Position numbers and translations under genes: made by a program. From assembly GCA_029552065.1 (NCBI GenBank), contig JAKPEG010000068.1, positions 3,033 to 67,032 on the forward strand: DNA of 64,000 bases, in the 5' to 3' direction. Positions 706 through 61,279 of this stretch are shown here, in pieces. The notes under the pieces are model-generated. The model ran no database searches. It had not been told where the DNA came from and saw only the letters and a list, made by a program, of their open reading frames with translations. Within the stretch, counting starts at the first letter, position 1. Each line of letters begins with the position of its first letter. This DNA is from Actinomycetes bacterium (lineage in GTDB: Bacteria > Actinomycetota > Actinomycetes > Actinomycetales > Dermatophilaceae).

Positions 706-1412
706 GTGAGCATGCCCTCTCGACGTAGGAAGCCTCGGATCGCTTCGCGCGGGCGAGTGGCGATCTCCGGACCATGGGTGAAAGCCGCTGTGCGGTAATC
801 GATCTCGGCCAAGCGGAGCGCGGTCCGTTGGCTCATCCGGAAGTTGCTGCAGAAGGCGCGGAACGACCAGCGCAGCCCGAGGACGTTGAAGATCGAGTCG
901 CCCGTGACGAGCGTGGCCGTCGGTTCGTGCAGGTATGCCGCGTGGCCGGGTGAGTGACCGGGCGTGTGGATCACCCGCAGGCCGCCAGCGATCGGGAGCA
1001 ACTCGCCGTCGTGCAATTCCTGTCCCACCTCGACCGCGTGGAAAGGCGTGCGGTCGACCCGGGCGAGCAGGCGACCCAGCCGCGAGTCCCGCGGGGTGTT
1101 CGTGCCGGTCCGCGCGTAGTGGGCGTCGTCGGCGTGGACGGCGACCGTGCGGCCGGTCGCCGCGGCGACCGCCGCCGCACCACCCGCGTGGTCCTGGTGG
1201 GCATGGGTGAGCAGCAGCCGGGTGACGTCCGAGGGCCCGGATCCGATCGCGGTGAGCGCGGCGAGCACCTTGGGGGCCGAGCGCGGGAGGCCCATGTCGA
1301 GGACGGTCACCTGCCCGTCATCGTCGCGCAGGAGGAAACCGTTGACGACGTCGCCCACGAGTCGCACCCGCCAGATCCCCGGCGCGAGCGGGACGACGAG
1401 CGGCCCGGCCAT
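702..1412 (-). CDS. MBL-fold metallo-hydrolase
   Basis: This is the last 236 aa of track ORF 702..1877 (MAGPLVVPLAPGIWRV...). It carries the HxHxDH motif (THAHQDHAGG) and a later PGHSPGH. ATG at 1412 overlaps the stop of the upstream gene (ATGA). The Arg/Pro-rich N-terminal part of the track ORF looks like non-coding read-through. Confidence 0.88.
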   Translation of the reverse strand: MAGPLVVPLAPGIWRVRLVGDVVNGFLLRDDDGQVTVLDMGLPRSAPKVLAALTAIGSGPSDVTRLLLTHAHQDHAGGAAAVAAATGRTVAVHADDAHYARTGTNTPRDSRLGRLLARVDRTPFHAVEVGQELHDGELLPIAGGLRVIHTPGHSPGHAAYLHEPTATLVTGDSIFNVLGLRWSFRAFCSNFRMSQRTALRLAEIDYRTAAFTHGPEIATRPREAIRGFLRREGMLT

Positions 1413-7602: not shown

Positions 7603-8010
7603 GTGATCACGCTCGAGCTCGCCCGGCGCCTCCGCGAGGCGGGTATGCCGTGGACCCCGGCTTCGGGGGACCGCTTCGTCGTGGGCCGTCCGGGGATGGA
7701 GGACGAGGTCTTCGTCCTCGCCGACATGCTCGCCGAGGTGCACGACTTCGTCGACGGTGCGGTCGTGGGCTTCAACGGGACCGTCGAATGGGCCCTGGAC
7801 TCCGTCGCACTCGCCGAGGTCGTCTGGCTGCCGCGCGAGGAACAGCTGCGCGAGGCGTTGGGTGGGTCCTTCGAGCGGTTGGAAGCGGTCACCGGGGGCT
7901 TCGTCGTCGTCACCCGGTCGCCGGACGGGCAGGTGACCACCCGGCATACCGACCTCGACCCGGAGCGCGCCTATGCGCGGGCGGTGCTCGCCAAGCTCAC
8001 CGGGTCCTGA
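7603..8010 (+). CDS. hypothetical protein
   Basis: GTG at 7603 (VITLELARRLREAGMPWTPASGDRFVV...), 135 aa, with high GC3. The start choice within track ORF 7402..8010 is uncertain. No family recognised. Confidence 0.5.
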   Translation: MITLELARRLREAGMPWTPASGDRFVVGRPGMEDEVFVLADMLAEVHDFVDGAVVGFNGTVEWALDSVALAEVVWLPREEQLREALGGSFERLEAVTGGFVVVTRSPDGQVTTRHTDLDPERAYARAVLAKLTGS

Positions 8011-21190: not shown

Positions 21191-22558
21191 TCAGCCACCC
21201 CAGCAGGACGCGGGCGGCTCGTAGGTCGACTTCGGTCGGCTCGTCGTCGAGCTGCCGGAGGAGGCCCCCGATCCGACCGGTGCGGTCGAAGAGGTGCCGG
21301 TCGCGCTCGTCGGCGCCGTGGACGAGGCCGGCGCAGACGTCGCCGTGGCGGAGAGGGCGGCGATGCGGAAGCGCACGAAGGCCTTGACGCCGCTGTAGTC
21401 GAACAGGCCGGCCACCGGCCGCACGACACTGAGCTGCCCGGCGGTCCCGACGGTGAGGACCGGGTGCGCCGGGTCGGTGAGGGAGATCGAGGTGAGCGAG
21501 CCCATTCCACGGGCGAGGTCGACGGCCGTCCGCGCCTCGTCCGTGCTCAGGTTGGTCGTCACGTTGTCACCGAGCGCGTCGATGAGCCGGCTCAACGCGG
21601 CGGGATTGGCGAGGGTGCCCGCCGACACGGCCTTGGCGCGCAGCGCGGAAAGGATCTTCTGCTGGTTGGCCTGCCGGTCGAAGTCGCCGCCGTTGAGGCC
21701 GAAGTTCATGCAGCTGCGGGCCTGGACGTCGCCGCGGGCCCGGGCCAGGTCGAGGGCGTGTTGCCCGTCGATGTGGTAGACGCCGTCCCGGGGGTAGTAG
21801 ACCCGACGACAGCCGACCGCTTCGTGCGGGCAGCCCGCGCCGTCGAGCCCTGTGTCGAAGATCCCCTCGTGCCCGTTGCCGACGATCTCGACGTCGATCC
21901 CGCCGACCGCGTCGACCGAGGTCGACAGGACCGTGTAGTTCACGTGCACCCAATATTGGGGGACCAGCCCGGTGACCGATCCCACGGCCGCGGCCAGTGC
22001 CTGGGCACCGGTCGCGTCGACCGCCTGGTAGTCCGGGATCTTCTCCTGGAGCGTCTCGAAGTGTCCGGTCGCGCATTCGTAGATCGCGTTGATCTTCGAC
22101 TCGGTGCCGACGATGCACGTGCCTGTGACCTTCACCCAGGTGTCGCGGGGGATGGCGACCATCGCCGCCGTGCCGGTCTTCGGGTCGATGCTCAGCACCT
22201 GGATCGCATCGGTGAGCCACATGCCCTGCCCACCCTCGCCCTGGCTGTGCCCGACGTCGTCCTGCGACGTGCCGAAGATGAGGACGTTCACGCGTCCGTC
22301 TGCATCGGTCTTCAGCGGGGTGTCCGCGGGGGCGACGAGGCCGACCACCGAACCGCCGCCACCGAAGACCTTGCCGCTCATGGCGGCGGTCTTCAGGGTG
22401 AGGACGACGGCCACCGTGACGACGGCGACGACGACGACCGCGACGATCGAGAGGAACCGCGCCCGCCGTCGCCGCCGGCGCTCGCGTCGGGACCGGCGCG
22501 ACATCGGCAAATCGAGCGTCCGGCCCCGAGGAGCCCCCTGTGTGGATGAAGTGGTCAT
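21191..22558 (-). CDS. LCP (LytR-CpsA-Psr) family cell-envelope transferase
   Basis: 455 aa. It has an Arg-rich cytoplasmic N-terminus, one TM (FLSIVAVVVVAVVTVAVVL), an LCP core (NVLIFGTSQDD...LSIDPKTGTAAMVAIPRDTWV) and a Ser/Thr-rich C-terminal tail. Confidence 0.85.
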   Translation of the reverse strand: MTTSSTQGAPRGRTLDLPMSRRSRRERRRRRRARFLSIVAVVVVAVVTVAVVLTLKTAAMSGKVFGGGGSVVGLVAPADTPLKTDADGRVNVLIFGTSQDDVGHSQGEGGQGMWLTDAIQVLSIDPKTGTAAMVAIPRDTWVKVTGTCIVGTESKINAIYECATGHFETLQEKIPDYQAVDATGAQALAAAVGSVTGLVPQYWVHVNYTVLSTSVDAVGGIDVEIVGNGHEGIFDTGLDGAGCPHEAVGCRRVYYPRDGVYHIDGQHALDLARARGDVQARSCMNFGLNGGDFDRQANQQKILSALRAKAVSAGTLANPAALSRLIDALGDNVTTNLSTDEARTAVDLARGMGSLTSISLTDPAHPVLTVGTAGQLSVVRPVAGLFDYSGVKAFVRFRIAALSATATSAPASSTAPTSATGTSSTAPVGSGASSGSSTTSRPKSTYEPPASCWGG

Positions 22559-22873
22559 AGTCCCGCAAAACGCCAGTAGTGAGTCACCGAAGTGTAGACG
22601 TCCTCACCTGTGACCCCTTCGGGGCGGGTCTGCGGGCTACGCTCGCCCGGTGGTCCCCCCGAGCGCTCCACCGCCCGTGCGCGGCGCCCACCGTTCGTCC
22701 CGGTATGCCGCGTGGCCGGCCATGGGGGTGGGGGCGAGGTGAACGTGCGCTTCCGCCACCGACTCACGCTCGTCGTGCTCGCCCTGCTCGTCGTCCTCGG
22801 GGTGATCGCCGCACTCGTCCGCTAGCCCACCACCCGCCCAGCACAGGCCCACCGGAAGCTCACCACTAGATTT

Positions 22874-22905: not shown

Positions 22906-23349
22906 ATGACGCGTCCGGCTGCCCCGCTCTCCGCGACCGAGCTCGCCCAGGTGGCCAGCGATCTGAGGCTCGCCTGCATGCGGATCAGTCGGCGGGTCCG
23001 GTTCGAGCATGTGAGCGAGATCGCACCCCATCAGTTCTCCGTTCTCGTGCGGCTCGAGGCCGGGCCGCACACCCCCGGGGAGCTCGCCGAGATCGAGCGG
23101 GTGGCCAAGCCGACGATGACCAAGACGGTCGGGCCGCTCGTCGAGCGTGGCTGGGTGCAGCGCACCGCGGATCCCGCGGACGGCCGGCAGGTCATCCTTT
23201 CGCTCACCCGCGAGGGTCGGGCCACCGTCGAGGCCACCCGACGCCGCCGGGACGCGTGGATGCGCACGAGGATCGGGCGGCTCGCCCCGGCCGACCAGCG
23301 CCTGCTCGCCGAAGCGGAACGGGTGCTCGCCCGGGTGGCCGCCGAGTGA
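22906..23349 (+). CDS. MarR family transcriptional regulator
   Basis: 147 aa with a winged-HTH core (SVLVRLEAGPHTPGELAEIERVAKPTMTKTVGPLVERGWVQRTADPADGRQV). GTGA overlap with the downstream MFS gene. Confidence 0.88.
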   Translation: MTRPAAPLSATELAQVASDLRLACMRISRRVRFEHVSEIAPHQFSVLVRLEAGPHTPGELAEIERVAKPTMTKTVGPLVERGWVQRTADPADGRQVILSLTREGRATVEATRRRRDAWMRTRIGRLAPADQRLLAEAERVLARVAAE

Positions 23350-24674: not shown

Positions 24675-25940
<1,266 letters not shown>

Positions 25941-45730: not shown

Positions 45731-47451
45731 GGGAGTTCCTTTCGATGGGTGGGGTGAGCGGGTCGGTCGTGCGACGGAGAAGCAGCAGGTATGCCGCGTG
45801 GTCCCGTGGGTCCGCCCCTCCCGTCGGCCGACTCGCCGACGTAGAGAGCCGCGAGGGCCGGATCCTTGGCGACGTCGGCAGCATTGCCCTGCAATGCGAT
45901 TCGGCCTTGGGCCAGGACATAGGCGCGGTCGGCGAGGGACAGGCCGCGGGCGATGTTCTGCTCGACGAGGACCATCGCGACCCCGGAGGAGCGCAGGGTG
46001 TCGAGCGCCTCGTAGAGCCGGTCGACGGCGATCGGCGCCAGTCCCAGGGAGATCTCGTCGAAGACGACGAGGCGGGGCTCGGACATGAGCGCCCGCCCCA
46101 CCGCGAGCATCTGCTGCTGGCCTCCGCTCATCGCCGTGCCGCTCTGGTTGCGCCGGTCGGCGAGGATGGGGAAGACGTCGTAGACCTGCTCGAGCCGGCG
46201 GGACCGCTCGGCCGCGGACGCGTCGCCGGCGCCGAGCACGAGGTTCTCCTCGACGCTCAGCGTGCCGAAGATCCGTCGCCCTTCCAGACATTGAGCCAAG
46301 CCCGCTGCCGTGACCCGGTCGGCCCGCCAGCCGGTGACGTCGGTGCCAGCGAAGCGGACCGTGCCGCCGGAAAGAGGCAGAGCCCCGGCCACGGCCCGCG
46401 CGAAGGTCGTCTTGCCGGCACCGTTGGCACCGAGCAGGGCGACCGTCTCGCCGGGGTGGACGACGAGATCGACCTCGCGCAATGCCCGCAGCCCGCCGTA
46501 GTCGACGGTGAGTCCGCGCACGTCGAGGAGCGGCTCTGCGGAAGTGGCCGTAGCCGGGGCAGTCCGTGGGGCGAGCGGTGGCGCACCTTTGCCCGAGTCC
46601 GACCCGGGTATGCCCGCAGCCAGACCCGGGCCCGGGTCCGCGGCGGGTGCGTGCTCGCCGGCCGCCGTGCCCAGGTAGACCGCGGCGACGGTGGGGTCGG
46701 CGAGCACGGCCCGGGTCGGGCCGAGGGCGATGAGCTTGCCGAAGTCGAGCACGGCCGTGCGGTCGCAGCAGGCGGTGATGACGTCCATCACGTGCTCGAT
46801 GACGAGCATGCCGTCGACCTCGGTCCGCAGGTCGAGGATGAGGTCGATGAGCTCGGCCGTCTCCGACTCGACCAGACCCGCGCCGATCTCGTCGAGCATG
46901 AGCAGCCGGGGCGACAGGGCCATCGCCCGCGCGAGCTCCAACCGCTTGCGGCGCAAGAGGGTGAGTCCGCCGGCGAGGGTGTCCGCGTGGTCGGCCAGGC
47001 CGGTCCGGTCGAGGATGCGCAGACACTCGGTCCGCCGAAGCGAGGTGCCCGCGCGGTGTCCGGAGTTGCTCGCTGCGAGCAGGAGGTTGTCCAGGACCGT
47101 CATCCGGGCGAACGGCCGCGGGATCTGGTGAGTGCGGCCGATCCCCAGACGCGCACGCCGGGCGGCGCCCTCTGCGCTCACGTCCCGGCCACCGAGCGCG
47201 ACGGTGCCCGCGGTGGGAGCGAGGGCGCCGCAGACGAGCCCGACGAGGGTGCTCTTGCCCGCGCCGTTGGGCCCGATCACGCCGACGACTTCACCGCGCG
47301 TCACGTCGAGGTCGACGCCGTCGAGGGCCGTGACGCCGCCGAAGCGCTTGCCCAGGCCGCGCACGGAGAGCACGGCGTCGCCCGGGCTCGCCTGCCCGGT
47401 GGCGACGGGAGCCGCGGTGGCTGCGGGCGGCATACCGGCGGGGGTGCTCAT
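45727..47451 (-). CDS. fused LivG-LivF-type ABC ATP-binding protein (two ATPase domains in one polypeptide)
   Basis: 574 aa. Domain 1 has GPNGAGKST with a degenerate signature region (LAGGLTLLRRKRLELARA) and LLMLDE. A roughly 40-aa Pro/Gly/Ala linker follows. Domain 2 has GANGAGKTT, MSGGQQQML and VVFDE. It ends in a roughly 40-aa basic/Pro-rich tail. Confidence 0.9.
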   Translation of the reverse strand: MSTPAGMPPAATAAPVATGQASPGDAVLSVRGLGKRFGGVTALDGVDLDVTRGEVVGVIGPNGAGKSTLVGLVCGALAPTAGTVALGGRDVSAEGAARRARLGIGRTHQIPRPFARMTVLDNLLLAASNSGHRAGTSLRRTECLRILDRTGLADHADTLAGGLTLLRRKRLELARAMALSPRLLMLDEIGAGLVESETAELIDLILDLRTEVDGMLVIEHVMDVITACCDRTAVLDFGKLIALGPTRAVLADPTVAAVYLGTAAGEHAPAADPGPGLAAGIPGSDSGKGAPPLAPRTAPATATSAEPLLDVRGLTVDYGGLRALREVDLVVHPGETVALLGANGAGKTTFARAVAGALPLSGGTVRFAGTDVTGWRADRVTAAGLAQCLEGRRIFGTLSVEENLVLGAGDASAAERSRRLEQVYDVFPILADRRNQSGTAMSGGQQQMLAVGRALMSEPRLVVFDEISLGLAPIAVDRLYEALDTLRSSGVAMVLVEQNIARGLSLADRAYVLAQGRIALQGNAADVAKDPALAALYVGESADGRGGPTGPRGIPAASPSHDRPAHPTHRKELP

Positions 47452-50568: not shown

Positions 50569-51512
50569 GCCTTCTCCTTCGGGTCTGTTCCGGACTCCGC
50601 CGCGCCCCTGATGGCGCGGTCGGTGAGTTGCGAGCGGACGTGGGCGGCCAGCCGGGCGCCCGCCCTTTCCCGATCCCCCGGCTCCCAGGTGAGGAAGCCG
50701 GAGCCGGACTTGGCCCCGAGCCGACCGGCGGCGACGAGATCGCGCAACAGCGGCGAAGGCCCGGGACGGTGGTCGATGGCGGGCAGCACGGCCTCGTGGA
50801 TCGCGAGGGTGAGGTCGAGGCCGACGAAGTCGGCGTTCTCGAGCGGCCCCATCTCGGCCAGGCGCAGCCCGATCGTGTTGCGCACGACGAGGTCGACGGT
50901 CTCGGCGTCGGCGATGCCCTCGGCGACGATCGCGATGGCCTCGCGCCAGAGGGCGTGTTGCATCCGGTTGCCGACGAAGCCGGGAACGTCGCGTTCGACC
51001 CGGACCGCGAGTTTGCCCAGACTGCAGAGCAATTGGACCGTCGTATCCATGGTCGTGGTCGACGTGTGGTGGCCGCGGACGACCTCGACGACCGGGATGA
51101 GACCGGGCGGGTTCCACCAGTGGGTGCCGACGACCCGCTCGGGTCGGGCGACCTGGGCGGCGATCGCCGTGACCGGCAGCACCGAGGTGTTCGTGGCCAG
51201 GATCGTCTCGGAGTCGGCGGCGGCGAGCTCGTGGAAGACCGCCTGTTTGACGGACAGGTCCTCCCGGACCGCCTCGGTGACGAAGGCCGCGCCGGCGGCG
51301 ACCTCGGCGAGCGAGCCGACGGGGCGCACGTGCGGGGCATACTCGGCGAGGGAGGCGACCGCCTCGGCGAGGGTCGCCTCGGAGACGTCGAAGAGCCGCA
51401 CCGAATGTCCGCCGCCGGCAAAGACGGCGGCGAGGGCGCGACCCATGAGACCGGCGCCGACGACGCCGACGGTGAGCGCGCCGGGTGAGGCGCCGGCCGG
51501 GATGGTCAGCAC
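50565..51512 (-). CDS. 3-hydroxyacyl-CoA dehydrogenase family protein (carnitine-dehydrogenase-like)
   Basis: 315 aa from GTG 51512. The Rossmann motif is VGVVGAGLMGRALAAVFAGGGHSVRLFD, followed by NTS, HWWNPP and PGFVGNRMQ motifs. It overlaps the SDR stop. Confidence 0.84.
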   Translation of the reverse strand: MLTIPAGASPGALTVGVVGAGLMGRALAAVFAGGGHSVRLFDVSEATLAEAVASLAEYAPHVRPVGSLAEVAAGAAFVTEAVREDLSVKQAVFHELAAADSETILATNTSVLPVTAIAAQVARPERVVGTHWWNPPGLIPVVEVVRGHHTSTTTMDTTVQLLCSLGKLAVRVERDVPGFVGNRMQHALWREAIAIVAEGIADAETVDLVVRNTIGLRLAEMGPLENADFVGLDLTLAIHEAVLPAIDHRPGPSPLLRDLVAAGRLGAKSGSGFLTWEPGDRERAGARLAAHVRSQLTDRAIRGAAESGTDPKEKA

Positions 51513-52342
51513 GCGGTGTAGCCGCCGTCGAGATAGAGCACCTGGCCGGTCATGAACGACGAGGCGTCGGAGAGCAGGTAGACGAGCGTGCCGGCGAAGT
51601 CGTCGGGTTCGGCGAACCGGCCGAGCGGGATCCGCGCGAACATTGCCTGCCGGACGGCCGTGCCGCGCTCGTCGTCGGCGAACATCCAGGCGGTGAGGTC
51701 GGAGCGAAAAACGGTGGGCGCCAAGGCATTCACCCGGATGCCCGCCGAACCCCATTCGGCGGCAAGGGTCTTGGCGAGCAGGTCGACGGCGGCCTTCGAC
51801 GGGCAGTATGCCGTGTAGCCGGCCGGGTGCCCGAGGCGCCCTCGCGTCGAGGAGACGAGCACGAGGCTGCCGCCGGTGCCCTGGTCGAGCCAGGCGCGTC
51901 CGGCCGCCTGGGCAACGAGCCAGGAGCCGCGGACGTTGGCGTCCATCACCTGCTCGAAGGTGTCGACCGGCATGTCGACGATCGGGGCGGTCTTGTTGAT
52001 GCCGGCCGCGACGAGGACTCCCCAGAGGGGGCCGTCGGCGCAGGCCGCGGCGACCATTGCGCTCGCGTCTTCCGGGGTGTCCGGACGCCGGGGCACGGTG
52101 GTCACCCGGGTGAGCGGACGCAGCTCCTGCGCGAGCGCTTCGAGGGCGTCGGTGCTGCTGCCCGTGAGGGTGAGGACGGCGCCTTCCTCGGCGAGGGCAC
52201 GGGCGCCGGCGGCACCGAGCGCACCCGTGGCCCCGACGACGAGAACCGAGCGCCCGGAGACGTCGAATCGGTTGCGCCGCAAGCTGGTTGGGGTGGGCGA
52301 GGAGTTGGGCGAAATGTCCACGTTGGGCTCCTGATTCCGCAT
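51506..52342 (-). CDS. SDR family oxidoreductase
   Basis: 278 aa from ATG 52342 (an alternative at 52393 has poor GC3). It has VLVVGATGALG, NAAG-like AAGIN and catalytic YCPSK. It is the first gene of the operon. Confidence 0.84.
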   Translation of the reverse strand: MRNQEPNVDISPNSSPTPTSLRRNRFDVSGRSVLVVGATGALGAAGARALAEEGAVLTLTGSSTDALEALAQELRPLTRVTTVPRRPDTPEDASAMVAAACADGPLWGVLVAAGINKTAPIVDMPVDTFEQVMDANVRGSWLVAQAAGRAWLDQGTGGSLVLVSSTRGRLGHPAGYTAYCPSKAAVDLLAKTLAAEWGSAGIRVNALAPTVFRSDLTAWMFADDERGTAVRQAMFARIPLGRFAEPDDFAGTLVYLLSDASSFMTGQVLYLDGGYTAC

Positions 52343-57229: not shown

Positions 57230-59782
57230 CTAGAGGCGAGGGTCGACCGGCTCGGATTCGAGCGCCAGCACCGCGAAGACGCGTTGGTGGACCTTCCACA
57301 GCGGCTCGTGGTCGACGAAGCCGACCAGCGCGTCGAGGCCCAGCCCGTGCTCACGCTGGGCGAGCTGACGCTTGCGACCCAGGTGGCGCTGGCGCAACAG
57401 GTCGAGCGAATCGGTGTAGTCCGGCCCGTAGATGATCCGCAGATACTCCCGGCCGCGCACCTTGAGCCCGGGCTGGACCCGGCCTCGGGCGTGCCCGACC
57501 GGCCCGGCCGGCTTGACGACCATGCCCTCGCCGCCTGCCGCGGTGAGCCCCAGCCACCAGGTCACGGCAGCAGCCCGCTCGTCAGGAGAGGCCAGCTCGA
57601 CGAATCGGTGCCGAGTGGGGGTGATGAGCGGGTCGTCGAGGGTCGCCAGCTGGGCCAGGTGCCAGTCGTGCCGCTCGCTCACCGCGAGCGCGCGGCCCTG
57701 CGCGGCCAGGATCTGGAAGGGCGCGAGGGTGATCCCGTCGAGTCCCTCGCTCGGCCGGCAGTATGCCGTGTAGGCGTCGCGGAAGGCCGTCGCGTCGGTG
57801 AGTCGGGTCTGGGTGCGGGCGGTCAGCTCGGCGACGTCGAGACCGCGCCGGCTCGCCTGGTCGAGCGCGTCGAGGGCGGCGGGCAGTGCGTGGCGTGCGG
57901 CCGCACCCACGGAGGCGTACTGGTTCTTGATGAGATCCAGGGCTTTGGCCGACCAGGGCAGCAGCTCGCAGTCCAACACCAGCCAGTCGCTGTCCAGCCG
58001 CTCGAACAACGGGGCGACGGCCCCGCGCAGCCGGTCGACCAAGGGTGCGGTGTCGGCGAAGAAGGGCCGCCCGGTGCGGGTGTAGACCACCCCGGTGCAC
58101 CCGTCGTCGACACCGAAGCGCAGCCGGGCGGTCTCGGGGTCCCGCGCGAGCACGGCGATCGCTCGGGAGCCCATGTGCTTCTCCTCGCACACCACCCGGG
58201 TGAGGCCCCACGCGGCATACTCCTCGAACGCCTGCTCGGGGTGCTCGAGGAAGCCGTCGAGCGACGACGCGGCTGCCGGTGACATGGTCGGCGGCAGGTA
58301 GACGAGCCAGCGCGGGTCCACCGCGAAGCGGCTCATCACCTCGAGCGCGGCTGCGGCGTTGTCCTCGGGGATCTTCACCTTGCCGGCGTGGGTCGTCGTG
58401 AGCCATCGGGTGCCGGCGACGTCGTCGATCGCCAGGACGGACGGCTCGCGTTCGGCGGCCTGGGGAGTGAGGGGCCGGGCCGGTTCGTACCACTGCTGCT
58501 CGGCGGGCACCGAGACGAGCTCGCGCTCGGGGTAGCGCAGCGCGGTGAGCGAGCCGCCGAAGACGGCGCCGGTGTCGAGACAGATGGTGTTGTTGACCCA
58601 TTCCGCACGCGGCACCGGGGTGTGGCCGTAGGCGACGAGGGCGCTGCCGCGGTAGTCGCGTGCCCACGGGTAGCGCACCGGCAGGCCGTAGTCGTCGGTC
58701 TCGCCGGTGGTGTCGCCGTAGAGGGCGAAGGCTCGTACTCGGCCGGAGGAGCGGCCCTGGTAGCTCTCCTTGAGGCCTGCGTGGGCGACGACCAGTCGCC
58801 CGCCGTCCAGCACGTAGTGGCTGATCAGCCCGTCCATGAACGCGAGCGCGGCGTCACGGACGTCGGCCGGCTGCGCCTCGATCTGGGCCAGCGACTCGGC
58901 CAGCCCGTGGGAGACGCGCACCTTGGCGCCCTTGAGCGCGCGGACGAGCTTGACCTCGTGGTTGCCGGAGACGCACAGGGCGGTGCCGGCCGCGACCATG
59001 CCCATGACCAGCCGCAGCACCCCGGGGGTGTCGGGCCCCCGGTCGACGAGGTCGCCGACGAAGACCGCCTGGCGCCCGGCCGGGTGGCTGGCCCCGACGG
59101 CGACCTCTCCGTCGAGCTCGAGCTCCCAGCCGAGGGCGGTGAGCAGGCTGCGCAGCTCGGAGGCGCAGCCGTGGACGTCGCCGATGATGTCGAACGGCCC
59201 GGTCAGCTCGGTGCGGTCGTTCCACGGCCGCTCGCGCTCGATGCGGGCAGCGGCGATCTCCTCGACCCCGCGCAGCACGTGCACCCGGCGGAAGCCCTCC
59301 TTGCCGAGCCGGCGGATCGAGCGGGCCAGGTCGCGGCTCTGCCGGGCCACCACGTGGTCGCCGAAGTCGCGGTCCGGGCGCTGCCGGTTGCGTGCGGTCG
59401 CCACCTGCTCGGGCACGTCGAGGACGATGGCGTCGACGAGCACGTCGTGCGACTTGGCCAGCGCGACGAGCGCCGCCCGCGACTGCTGCTGGACGTTGGT
59501 CGCGTCGACGACGGCCAGGAGCCCGCGGCGCAGTCGGGTGCCGACGATGAAGTGCAGCACGTCGAAGGCGTCGGGGGTCGCCGACTGGTCGTTCTCGTCG
59601 TCCGCGACCAGACCGCGGCAGACGTCGCTCGAGATGACCTCGGTCGGCGCGAAGTGTTCGCGCGCGAAGGTCGACTTGCCGCTGCCGGACACGCCGACCA
59701 GCACGACCAGGCCCCTCGCGGGGATCCGCAGCGGAGGCCGCTCTTCGGGCCGGTCGCTGCTCGCCCGGCTGGTTTCAGACAC
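57230..59782 (-). CDS. pnkp: polynucleotide kinase-phosphatase (bacterial Pnkp: kinase, metallophosphatase, ligase-like adenylyltransferase)
   Basis: 850 aa from GTG 59782, overlapping the hen1 stop by 8 nt. The P-loop kinase is VVLVGVSGSGKSTF. The calcineurin-type phosphatase has GDVHGC...GDLVDRGPD...GNHE...GHTP. The C-terminal domain has the lysine motif EEKHMGSRA. Confidence 0.9.
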   Translation of the reverse strand: MSETSRASSDRPEERPPLRIPARGLVVLVGVSGSGKSTFAREHFAPTEVISSDVCRGLVADDENDQSATPDAFDVLHFIVGTRLRRGLLAVVDATNVQQQSRAALVALAKSHDVLVDAIVLDVPEQVATARNRQRPDRDFGDHVVARQSRDLARSIRRLGKEGFRRVHVLRGVEEIAAARIERERPWNDRTELTGPFDIIGDVHGCASELRSLLTALGWELELDGEVAVGASHPAGRQAVFVGDLVDRGPDTPGVLRLVMGMVAAGTALCVSGNHEVKLVRALKGAKVRVSHGLAESLAQIEAQPADVRDAALAFMDGLISHYVLDGGRLVVAHAGLKESYQGRSSGRVRAFALYGDTTGETDDYGLPVRYPWARDYRGSALVAYGHTPVPRAEWVNNTICLDTGAVFGGSLTALRYPERELVSVPAEQQWYEPARPLTPQAAEREPSVLAIDDVAGTRWLTTTHAGKVKIPEDNAAAALEVMSRFAVDPRWLVYLPPTMSPAAASSLDGFLEHPEQAFEEYAAWGLTRVVCEEKHMGSRAIAVLARDPETARLRFGVDDGCTGVVYTRTGRPFFADTAPLVDRLRGAVAPLFERLDSDWLVLDCELLPWSAKALDLIKNQYASVGAAARHALPAALDALDQASRRGLDVAELTARTQTRLTDATAFRDAYTAYCRPSEGLDGITLAPFQILAAQGRALAVSERHDWHLAQLATLDDPLITPTRHRFVELASPDERAAAVTWWLGLTAAGGEGMVVKPAGPVGHARGRVQPGLKVRGREYLRIIYGPDYTDSLDLLRQRHLGRKRQLAQREHGLGLDALVGFVDHEPLWKVHQRVFAVLALESEPVDPRL

Positions 59783-61172: not shown

Positions 61173-61279
61173 GGGGTCAGTCTGCCCGAGGCGGGTATGC
61201 CGTTTCGCGCCGATTAGCCTGGGCTTTGGGGTCGGGAAATCTGTTCCTGTCGACGCGGGCGGGCGGCTACGGTGCGAGC

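Follow-up and report, generated by a model that had tools for sequence, protein, structure and literature searches.

DNA-uptake signals are the closest described analogues of the iterated word GTATGCCG analysed here. The Haemophilus uptake signal has a core-plus-flank architecture (PMC3458573), and the uptake signal sequence (USS) exists in Hin-type and Apl-type variants (PMC1626085). Like a USS, GTATGCCG is a short, near-invariant core that is present on both strands at about one copy per kb without replication polarity, is accommodated by several reading frames of coding DNA and frequently forms inverted pairs in spacers; it too has a weaker extended consensus, on one side only and about one helical turn from the core, and this flank consensus varies between lineages. 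The host, however, is a high-GC Gram-positive actinobacterium, and the extension, present in about 4-10% of copies, consists not of T-tracts but of a GC-rich box, GSTCRCC, followed by TCCC. The DUS of the Neisseriaceae is reportedly a word of 10-12 nt with genus-level dialects. GTATGCCG resembles it in density, strand symmetry, family-wide spread with lineage variants and an excess of inverted pairs, as well as in a positional conservation well above background (60% shared at 76% nucleotide identity); it differs in its core of 8 nt and in having its additional information spaced instead of contiguous. The only competence-related genes found encode ComEC, DprA and four pseudopilins of the TadE type, all of them widespread and shared with non-competent control genomes. 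No relevant literature was found on the word or on uptake sequences in Dermatophilaceae.

The octamer and its shared blocks

The window, i.e. the whole 64-kb stretch of DNA that was analysed, contains 67 copies of GTATGCCG, where about 1 would be expected. In the 3.65-Mb genome (71.7% GC) it is the most frequent 8-mer, with 4,235 copies distributed almost evenly over the two strands (2,108 forward, 2,127 reverse) at a density of about 1 per kb. Orientation is balanced in each 100-kb bin (1.6 Mb, three genomes), which argues against a polar signal of the Chi or KOPS type. Nor is the word of the HIP1 type, as GTATGCCG and CGGCATAC are distinct words and there is hence no palindrome. The octamer is dense at many Dermatophilaceae loci and absent from other actinobacterial families. 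Two Intrasporangium MAG loci (L008, L014) contain few copies; another word, ACTGCACACTCGACG, occurs there five times in 22 kb and may be the signature word of that lineage.

The frame distribution was established for the 4,219 copies with full 20-nt flanks, using a simple gene map made for the analysis. The most frequent classes are xCG GCA TAC (1,256 copies) and TAT GCC (1,087), followed by GGC ATA C (347), xGT ATG CCG (284), CGG CAT AC (205) and GTA TGC CG (100); 880 copies are intergenic and 60 straddle a gene boundary. Density is 2.06 per kb in intergenic DNA versus 1.04 per kb in genes. Neighbouring octamers within 120 nt are inverted in 491 cases (236 convergent, 255 divergent) versus 92 in tandem; overall, close pairs are about as numerous as random placement would make them. 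On one contig (C107:1968-2040), three tandem 32-nt units each contain an octamer with identical flanks.

The 22-mer CCCGGTATGCCGCGTGGCCGGC occurs exactly twice in the window. The first copy lies at 22699-22720 (+), with its octamer at 22703-22710, one base away from the interval 22698-22719 originally reported, in the spacer that separates marR (22906-23349, +) from the divergent LCP gene (21191-22504, -). The second, at 25308-25329 (-), is found as announced within serC (24675-25811, -), where it is read CCG GTA TGC CGC GTG GCC GGC (P-V-C-R-V-A-G) and belongs to the rarest octamer frame class (100 of 4,219 copies). The two copies are inverted and 2.6 kb apart. A small ORF (22739-22825, +; 28 codons) with a hydrophobic product (VNVRFRHRLTLVVLALLVVLGVIAALVR) begins 18 nt past the intergenic copy. 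The congener G026 has it too, with 80% conservation over 77 nt, but between serC and the neighbouring gene; the locus has thus been rearranged.

The other blocks singled out in the preliminary description were also recovered. The 18-mer GGTATGCCGCGTGGCCGG lies at 932-949 (+) within a gene of the metallo-beta-lactamase (MBL) fold (702-1412, -), which reads the block on the other strand as P-G-H-A-A-Y; it is one of eight genome copies, three of which fall within 24.4 kb, and positions 929-950 match the 22-mer with three mismatches at the ends. The 17-mer GGCAGTATGCCGTGTAG is shared by the SDR gene (51506-52342, -), at 51802-51818 (+), and pnkp (57230-59704, -), at 57757-57773 (+). Two further 17-nt coincidences were found, namely GCAGGTATGCCGCGTGG at 929-945 (+) and 45785-45801 (+), and CGAGGCGGGTATGCCGT at 7635-7651 and 61187-61203. 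Pfam bears out the genes named as contexts (MBL, LytR_cpsA_psr, MarR, class-V aminotransferase for SerC, SDR and Pnkp); we agree that the identity cannot be put down to shared descent of the genes. The frames had been called unrelated, which does not hold for the GGCAGTATGCCGTGTAG pair: both copies are read ..ACG GCA TAC.. and belong to the class xCG GCA TAC.

Frequency of extended identity

Exact identity around the octamer was determined for each of the 8.9 million copy pairs. With dinucleotide shuffles of the window as a naive null, 0 blocks are expected; the proper reference is the full set of pairs among the 67 window copies, 2,211 in number. Six of these pairs agree over at least 17 nt, three of them constituting one dependent triple, versus 1.45 expected at the genome-wide rate and about 1.1 at the rate of control octamers. 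For the 22-nt pair the expectation is about 0.02 per window, i.e. roughly one per genome (~57 windows).

Relative to column shuffles, which preserve the composition of each flank position, there is an excess of about 2 times for pairs of at least 17 nt and about 9 times for pairs of at least 22 nt, with 2-5 times as the summary figure. When the shuffles are made within frame classes and both the copies with a nearby second octamer and the homologous pairs are removed, 492 pairs of at least 20 nt are left versus 141 expected, and 78 of at least 22 nt versus 14. Frame-matched random positions exceed their own shuffles too, about 1.3-fold at 17 nt or more and about 1.8-fold at 20 nt or more. Some of the longest apparent pairs stem from identical contig ends (C39/C93, C5/C90, C12/C19, C25/C239); the assembly, rated at 88% completeness and 6.3% contamination, therefore contains redundancy.

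The word was also compared with 70 control octamers of the same composition, each with at least 300 copies, located away from the real copies and not overlapping the real octamer. Per pair, identity of at least 17 nt has a median rate of 5.0e-4 (IQR 3.8-6.4e-4) around the controls versus 7.3-8.5e-4 around GTATGCCG, and identity of at least 20 nt a rate of 3.7e-5 versus 4.9-6.5e-5; the ratio of observed to shuffled pairs is 1.64 (maximum 2.41) versus about 2.05. Recurrent 18-mers reach equal multiplicity around the control words in equal-sized samples. Any fixed octamer in such GC-rich, codon-biased DNA gives blocks of this kind, and GTATGCCG gives about 1.5 times more per pair. The comparison with words of equal composition, called for in the preliminary description, thus shows a surplus of only about 1.5-fold, and the blocks around GTATGCCG are conspicuous because its copies are so numerous.

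The 17-22-nt blocks are therefore probably, for the most part, coincidences within the large population of copies of a single hyper-abundant word. Copies of GTATGCCG are gained and lost in place by point substitution and are retained far longer than the adjacent bases, and their flanks are drawn from 72% GC, codon-biased DNA, in which about 5-8 per 10,000 pairs around any fixed octamer agree over at least 17 nt. With pairs numbering 2,211 in the window and 9 million genome-wide, blocks of this kind are bound to arise. The modest surplus of about 1.5-fold comes from a genuine but weak one-sided extension, with G at -1, Y and S at +8 and +9, and G-S-T-C-R-C-C at +11 to +17, often followed by TCCC. 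Several observations run counter to coincidence: the six window pairs of at least 17 nt compared with the 1.1-1.5 expected, the clustering of the 18-mer in 24.4 kb, the separation of the 22-mer pair (2.6 kb), which falls inside a bin of excess at 1-3 kb, and the excess over column shuffles, which survives the removal of the copies fitting the extension.

Selection on the longer blocks themselves is the alternative that fares best, but we consider it unlikely. The GTATGCCG-CGTGGCCGG variant, with its eight genome copies, would then serve a putative regulator as a specific, high-affinity site. A position-independent model predicts about 0.6 copies instead of eight, the flank partly matches the extension consensus (Y-G-Y-G-G-Y-C), and three copies cluster in the window. 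However, control octamers yield equally recurrent 18-mers, and the copies lie in differing frames and contexts. Moreover, the serC gene of the congener G026 has neither the word nor the flank, and the octamer positions within serC shift between relatives.

Origin and retention of octamer copies

The serC gene, whose relatives (about 80% identity to Pedococcus and Intrasporangium) put the organism in Dermatophilaceae/Intrasporangiaceae, shows how one copy arose. Its site has the form CCG GTS xxx CGN GTS ... GGN in 37 of 39 orthologues (36 as ...APV-x-RV-x-G...), so that the flanks of the block are present in relatives, but the octamer is found at this site in none of the 39. In the orthologue L024, for instance, 19 of the 22 bases match and the octamer is absent. 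Since these flanks exist without the octamer, two adjacent substitutions (GTC CGC to GTA TGC) made the word in place.

A broader view comes from the congener G026, 800 kb of which were aligned to the genome under study (489 kb aligned, mean nucleotide identity 76%); the MBL, SDR and pnkp copies yielded no alignment in this genome. Of 321 octamers, 191 (60%) are kept at the same position, far above the neighbouring bases, and such conservation at this level of identity suggests that individual copies are strongly retained. A further 228 octamers are confined to one genome of the pair, the partner mostly having a variant with one to three mismatches, such as CTATGCCG (17 cases) or GTAGGCCG. Flank identity at these 228 sites is 0.75-0.80 versus a background of 0.77-0.80. 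In the 3' columns +8 to +19 (12 nt), conservation is 3.5 points lower than in other flanks (CI -5.6 to -1.5), and small templated events may therefore occur occasionally. The fit of the flanks to the consensus is the same with or without the octamer once GC is controlled. Copies with extended identity are strongly enriched at distances below 200 nt, where they correspond to hairpin arms and tandem units; no proximity of similar copies is seen at 200-1000 nt or at 3-64 kb, and the 1-3 kb bin has a 2-fold excess of similar pairs of at least 17 nt (p about 0.005, uncorrected).

These data bear directly on the proposal, made when the blocks were first noticed, that some copies arise by short-patch copying or gene conversion. 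Patches of 15-25 nt, octamer and flanks together, would be moved between loci, for example from serC to the LCP/marR spacer. The serC octamer, made by two adjacent substitutions, and the long arms shared by close inverted octamer pairs recall footprints of short-patch repair or gene conversion as well as template switching at quasi-palindromes; the closeness and inversion of the 22-mer pair, the excess at 1-3 kb and the slight identity deficit at +8 to +19 point the same way. Against this, the flanks in serC are ancestral, and serC therefore cannot be the recipient; its octamer lacks a partner within 800 nt. The octamers found in one genome only show no co-conversion of their flanks, which stay within 3.5 points of background, and with GC controlled the fit of the flanks to the consensus does not depend on the octamer. 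Finally, extended identity is nearly as frequent around ordinary octamers. Taken together, the control rates, the ancestral serC flanks, the background level of flank conservation and the lack of donor proximity at 200-1000 nt and at 3-64 kb leave copying and conversion unsupported, and we judge them improbable.

The same evidence leaves a mobile element unsupported, and a miniature element of the MITE or REP type, whose conserved ends or cores would have been inserted in genes and spacers, is the least credible source of the blocks: the word is highly iterated, enriched in intergenic DNA and often paired in inverted orientation, but copies stand in frame in conserved genes without indels relative to orthologues, identity drops off rapidly outside the word, terminal repeats and target duplications are lacking, and the extension shows no base-pair covariation and folds no better than shuffles.

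The one-sided 3' extension

The reading as coincidences among copies of an abundant word leaves the modest surplus to a 3' extension, which is directly visible in the flanks. Beyond the octamer, the average logo contributes little, namely G at -1 (54%), Y at +8 (86%) and S at +9; identity fades a few bases from the word and information ends within about 20 nt. Around intergenic copies, the left flank provides about 0.6 bit of extra information and the right flank 1.5 bits. A subset of copies nevertheless has a sharp box at a fixed position; the consensus reads G-GTATGCCG-YSY-GSTCRCC-TCCC, in which the box starts 3 nt past the word. C[AG]CC at +14 is found in 376 copies versus about 95, TCACC at +13 in 67 versus 6.7, and CTCCC at +17 in 65 versus 4.4. 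The box occurs in all frames and is commonest among intergenic copies, 82 of which (9.4%) have GSYCRCC at +11, versus 4.0; a two-component mixture assigns about 30% of the intergenic copies to the extension-consensus component. The only window copy with the full 3' extension lies at 7932-7949 (-) and reads GTATGCCG-GGT-GGTCACC.

Information past the 8-mer thus exists, as a weak extension on one side. The idea that some octamers belong to a longer element is right insofar as this extension is reproducible and position-specific; the blocks cited in its favour need no extension, and only half fit it. The flank of the 22-mer (CGTGGCC-GGC), for instance, corresponds to just the first half of the consensus.

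The extension is replicated in other genera, the box being found 39 times versus about 2 in G032 and 22 times versus about 1 in G020. Across the family, the box was counted at its N5 spacing and, as an in-phase control, at N8. The N5 and N8 counts are 164 and 25 in the genome under study (G000; 4,235 octamers), 70 and 11 in G026, 168 and 19 in G006, 208 and 8 in G020, 240 and 2 in G032 (2,410 octamers), and 141 and 8 in G044. In four other octamer-rich genomes, TCRCC at +13 is not enriched and the two counts are similar: 18 and 18 in G003 (2,288 octamers), 46 and 44 in G004 (3,112), 10 and 14 in G038 (1,734), and 15 and 13 in G052 (2,608). The extension, seen in most but not all of the octamer-rich family genomes searched, is therefore lineage-specific, in the manner of a flank dialect, and these four genomes speak against a signal made of word plus extension.

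Several other readings of the extension were rejected. It is not a hairpin, as there is no covariation between columns -2 to -9 and +18 to +25 or within the box, and RNA folds are no better than those of shuffles. A hidden coding motif, G-[DE]-[HR]-[TA]-A-Y, can be dismissed because the intergenic copies are the richest in the box and lack codon periodicity; an open-frame test for hidden ORFs is uninformative at 72% GC. The reverse complement, GGGAGGYGA, looks like a strong Shine-Dalgarno sequence, and the forward strand resembles the 3' end of 16S rRNA (..TCACCTCC..). A promoter or Shine-Dalgarno function was discarded since inspection revealed no start codon at a usable distance. A second, broader TCRCC peak is observed at +29 to +33, about 16-19 nt past the first box, in G000, G032 and G020; in G000, it does not co-occur with the +13 box in excess (20 copies with both versus 27 expected).

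Beyond these observations, the word and its extension would together form the binding signal of a putative sequence-specific DNA-recognising factor. By analogy, their nearest counterpart would be a DNA-uptake signal that accumulates through biased uptake and recombination. More speculatively, GTATGCCG might be only one part, the core, of a bipartite and asymmetric signal of ~22 bp, G-GTATGCCG-N3-GSTCRCC-TCCC, with its two boxes one helical turn apart, read by a dedicated putative DNA receptor of the Dermatophilaceae with which lineage-specific second boxes would co-evolve; we put this forward as a tentative model.

The shared blocks do not point to a copying mechanism, and a tempting but wrong lead is thereby removed. 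In-place origin combined with unusual retention is what would be expected of drive or selection acting on a recognition signal, not of a mobile repeat. Since the extension is kept in many genera and absent from some, it provides a handle for uptake or binding assays with and without the box (e.g. GGTCACCTCCC), as well as for the search for the recognising protein among genes that are present or vary alongside the extension across genera. The Dermatophilaceae include major wastewater phosphorus-removing bacteria. Should the putative receptor prove to be part of a machinery for DNA uptake, Gram-positive bacteria would have their first uptake signal, one with a USS-like core-plus-flank architecture.
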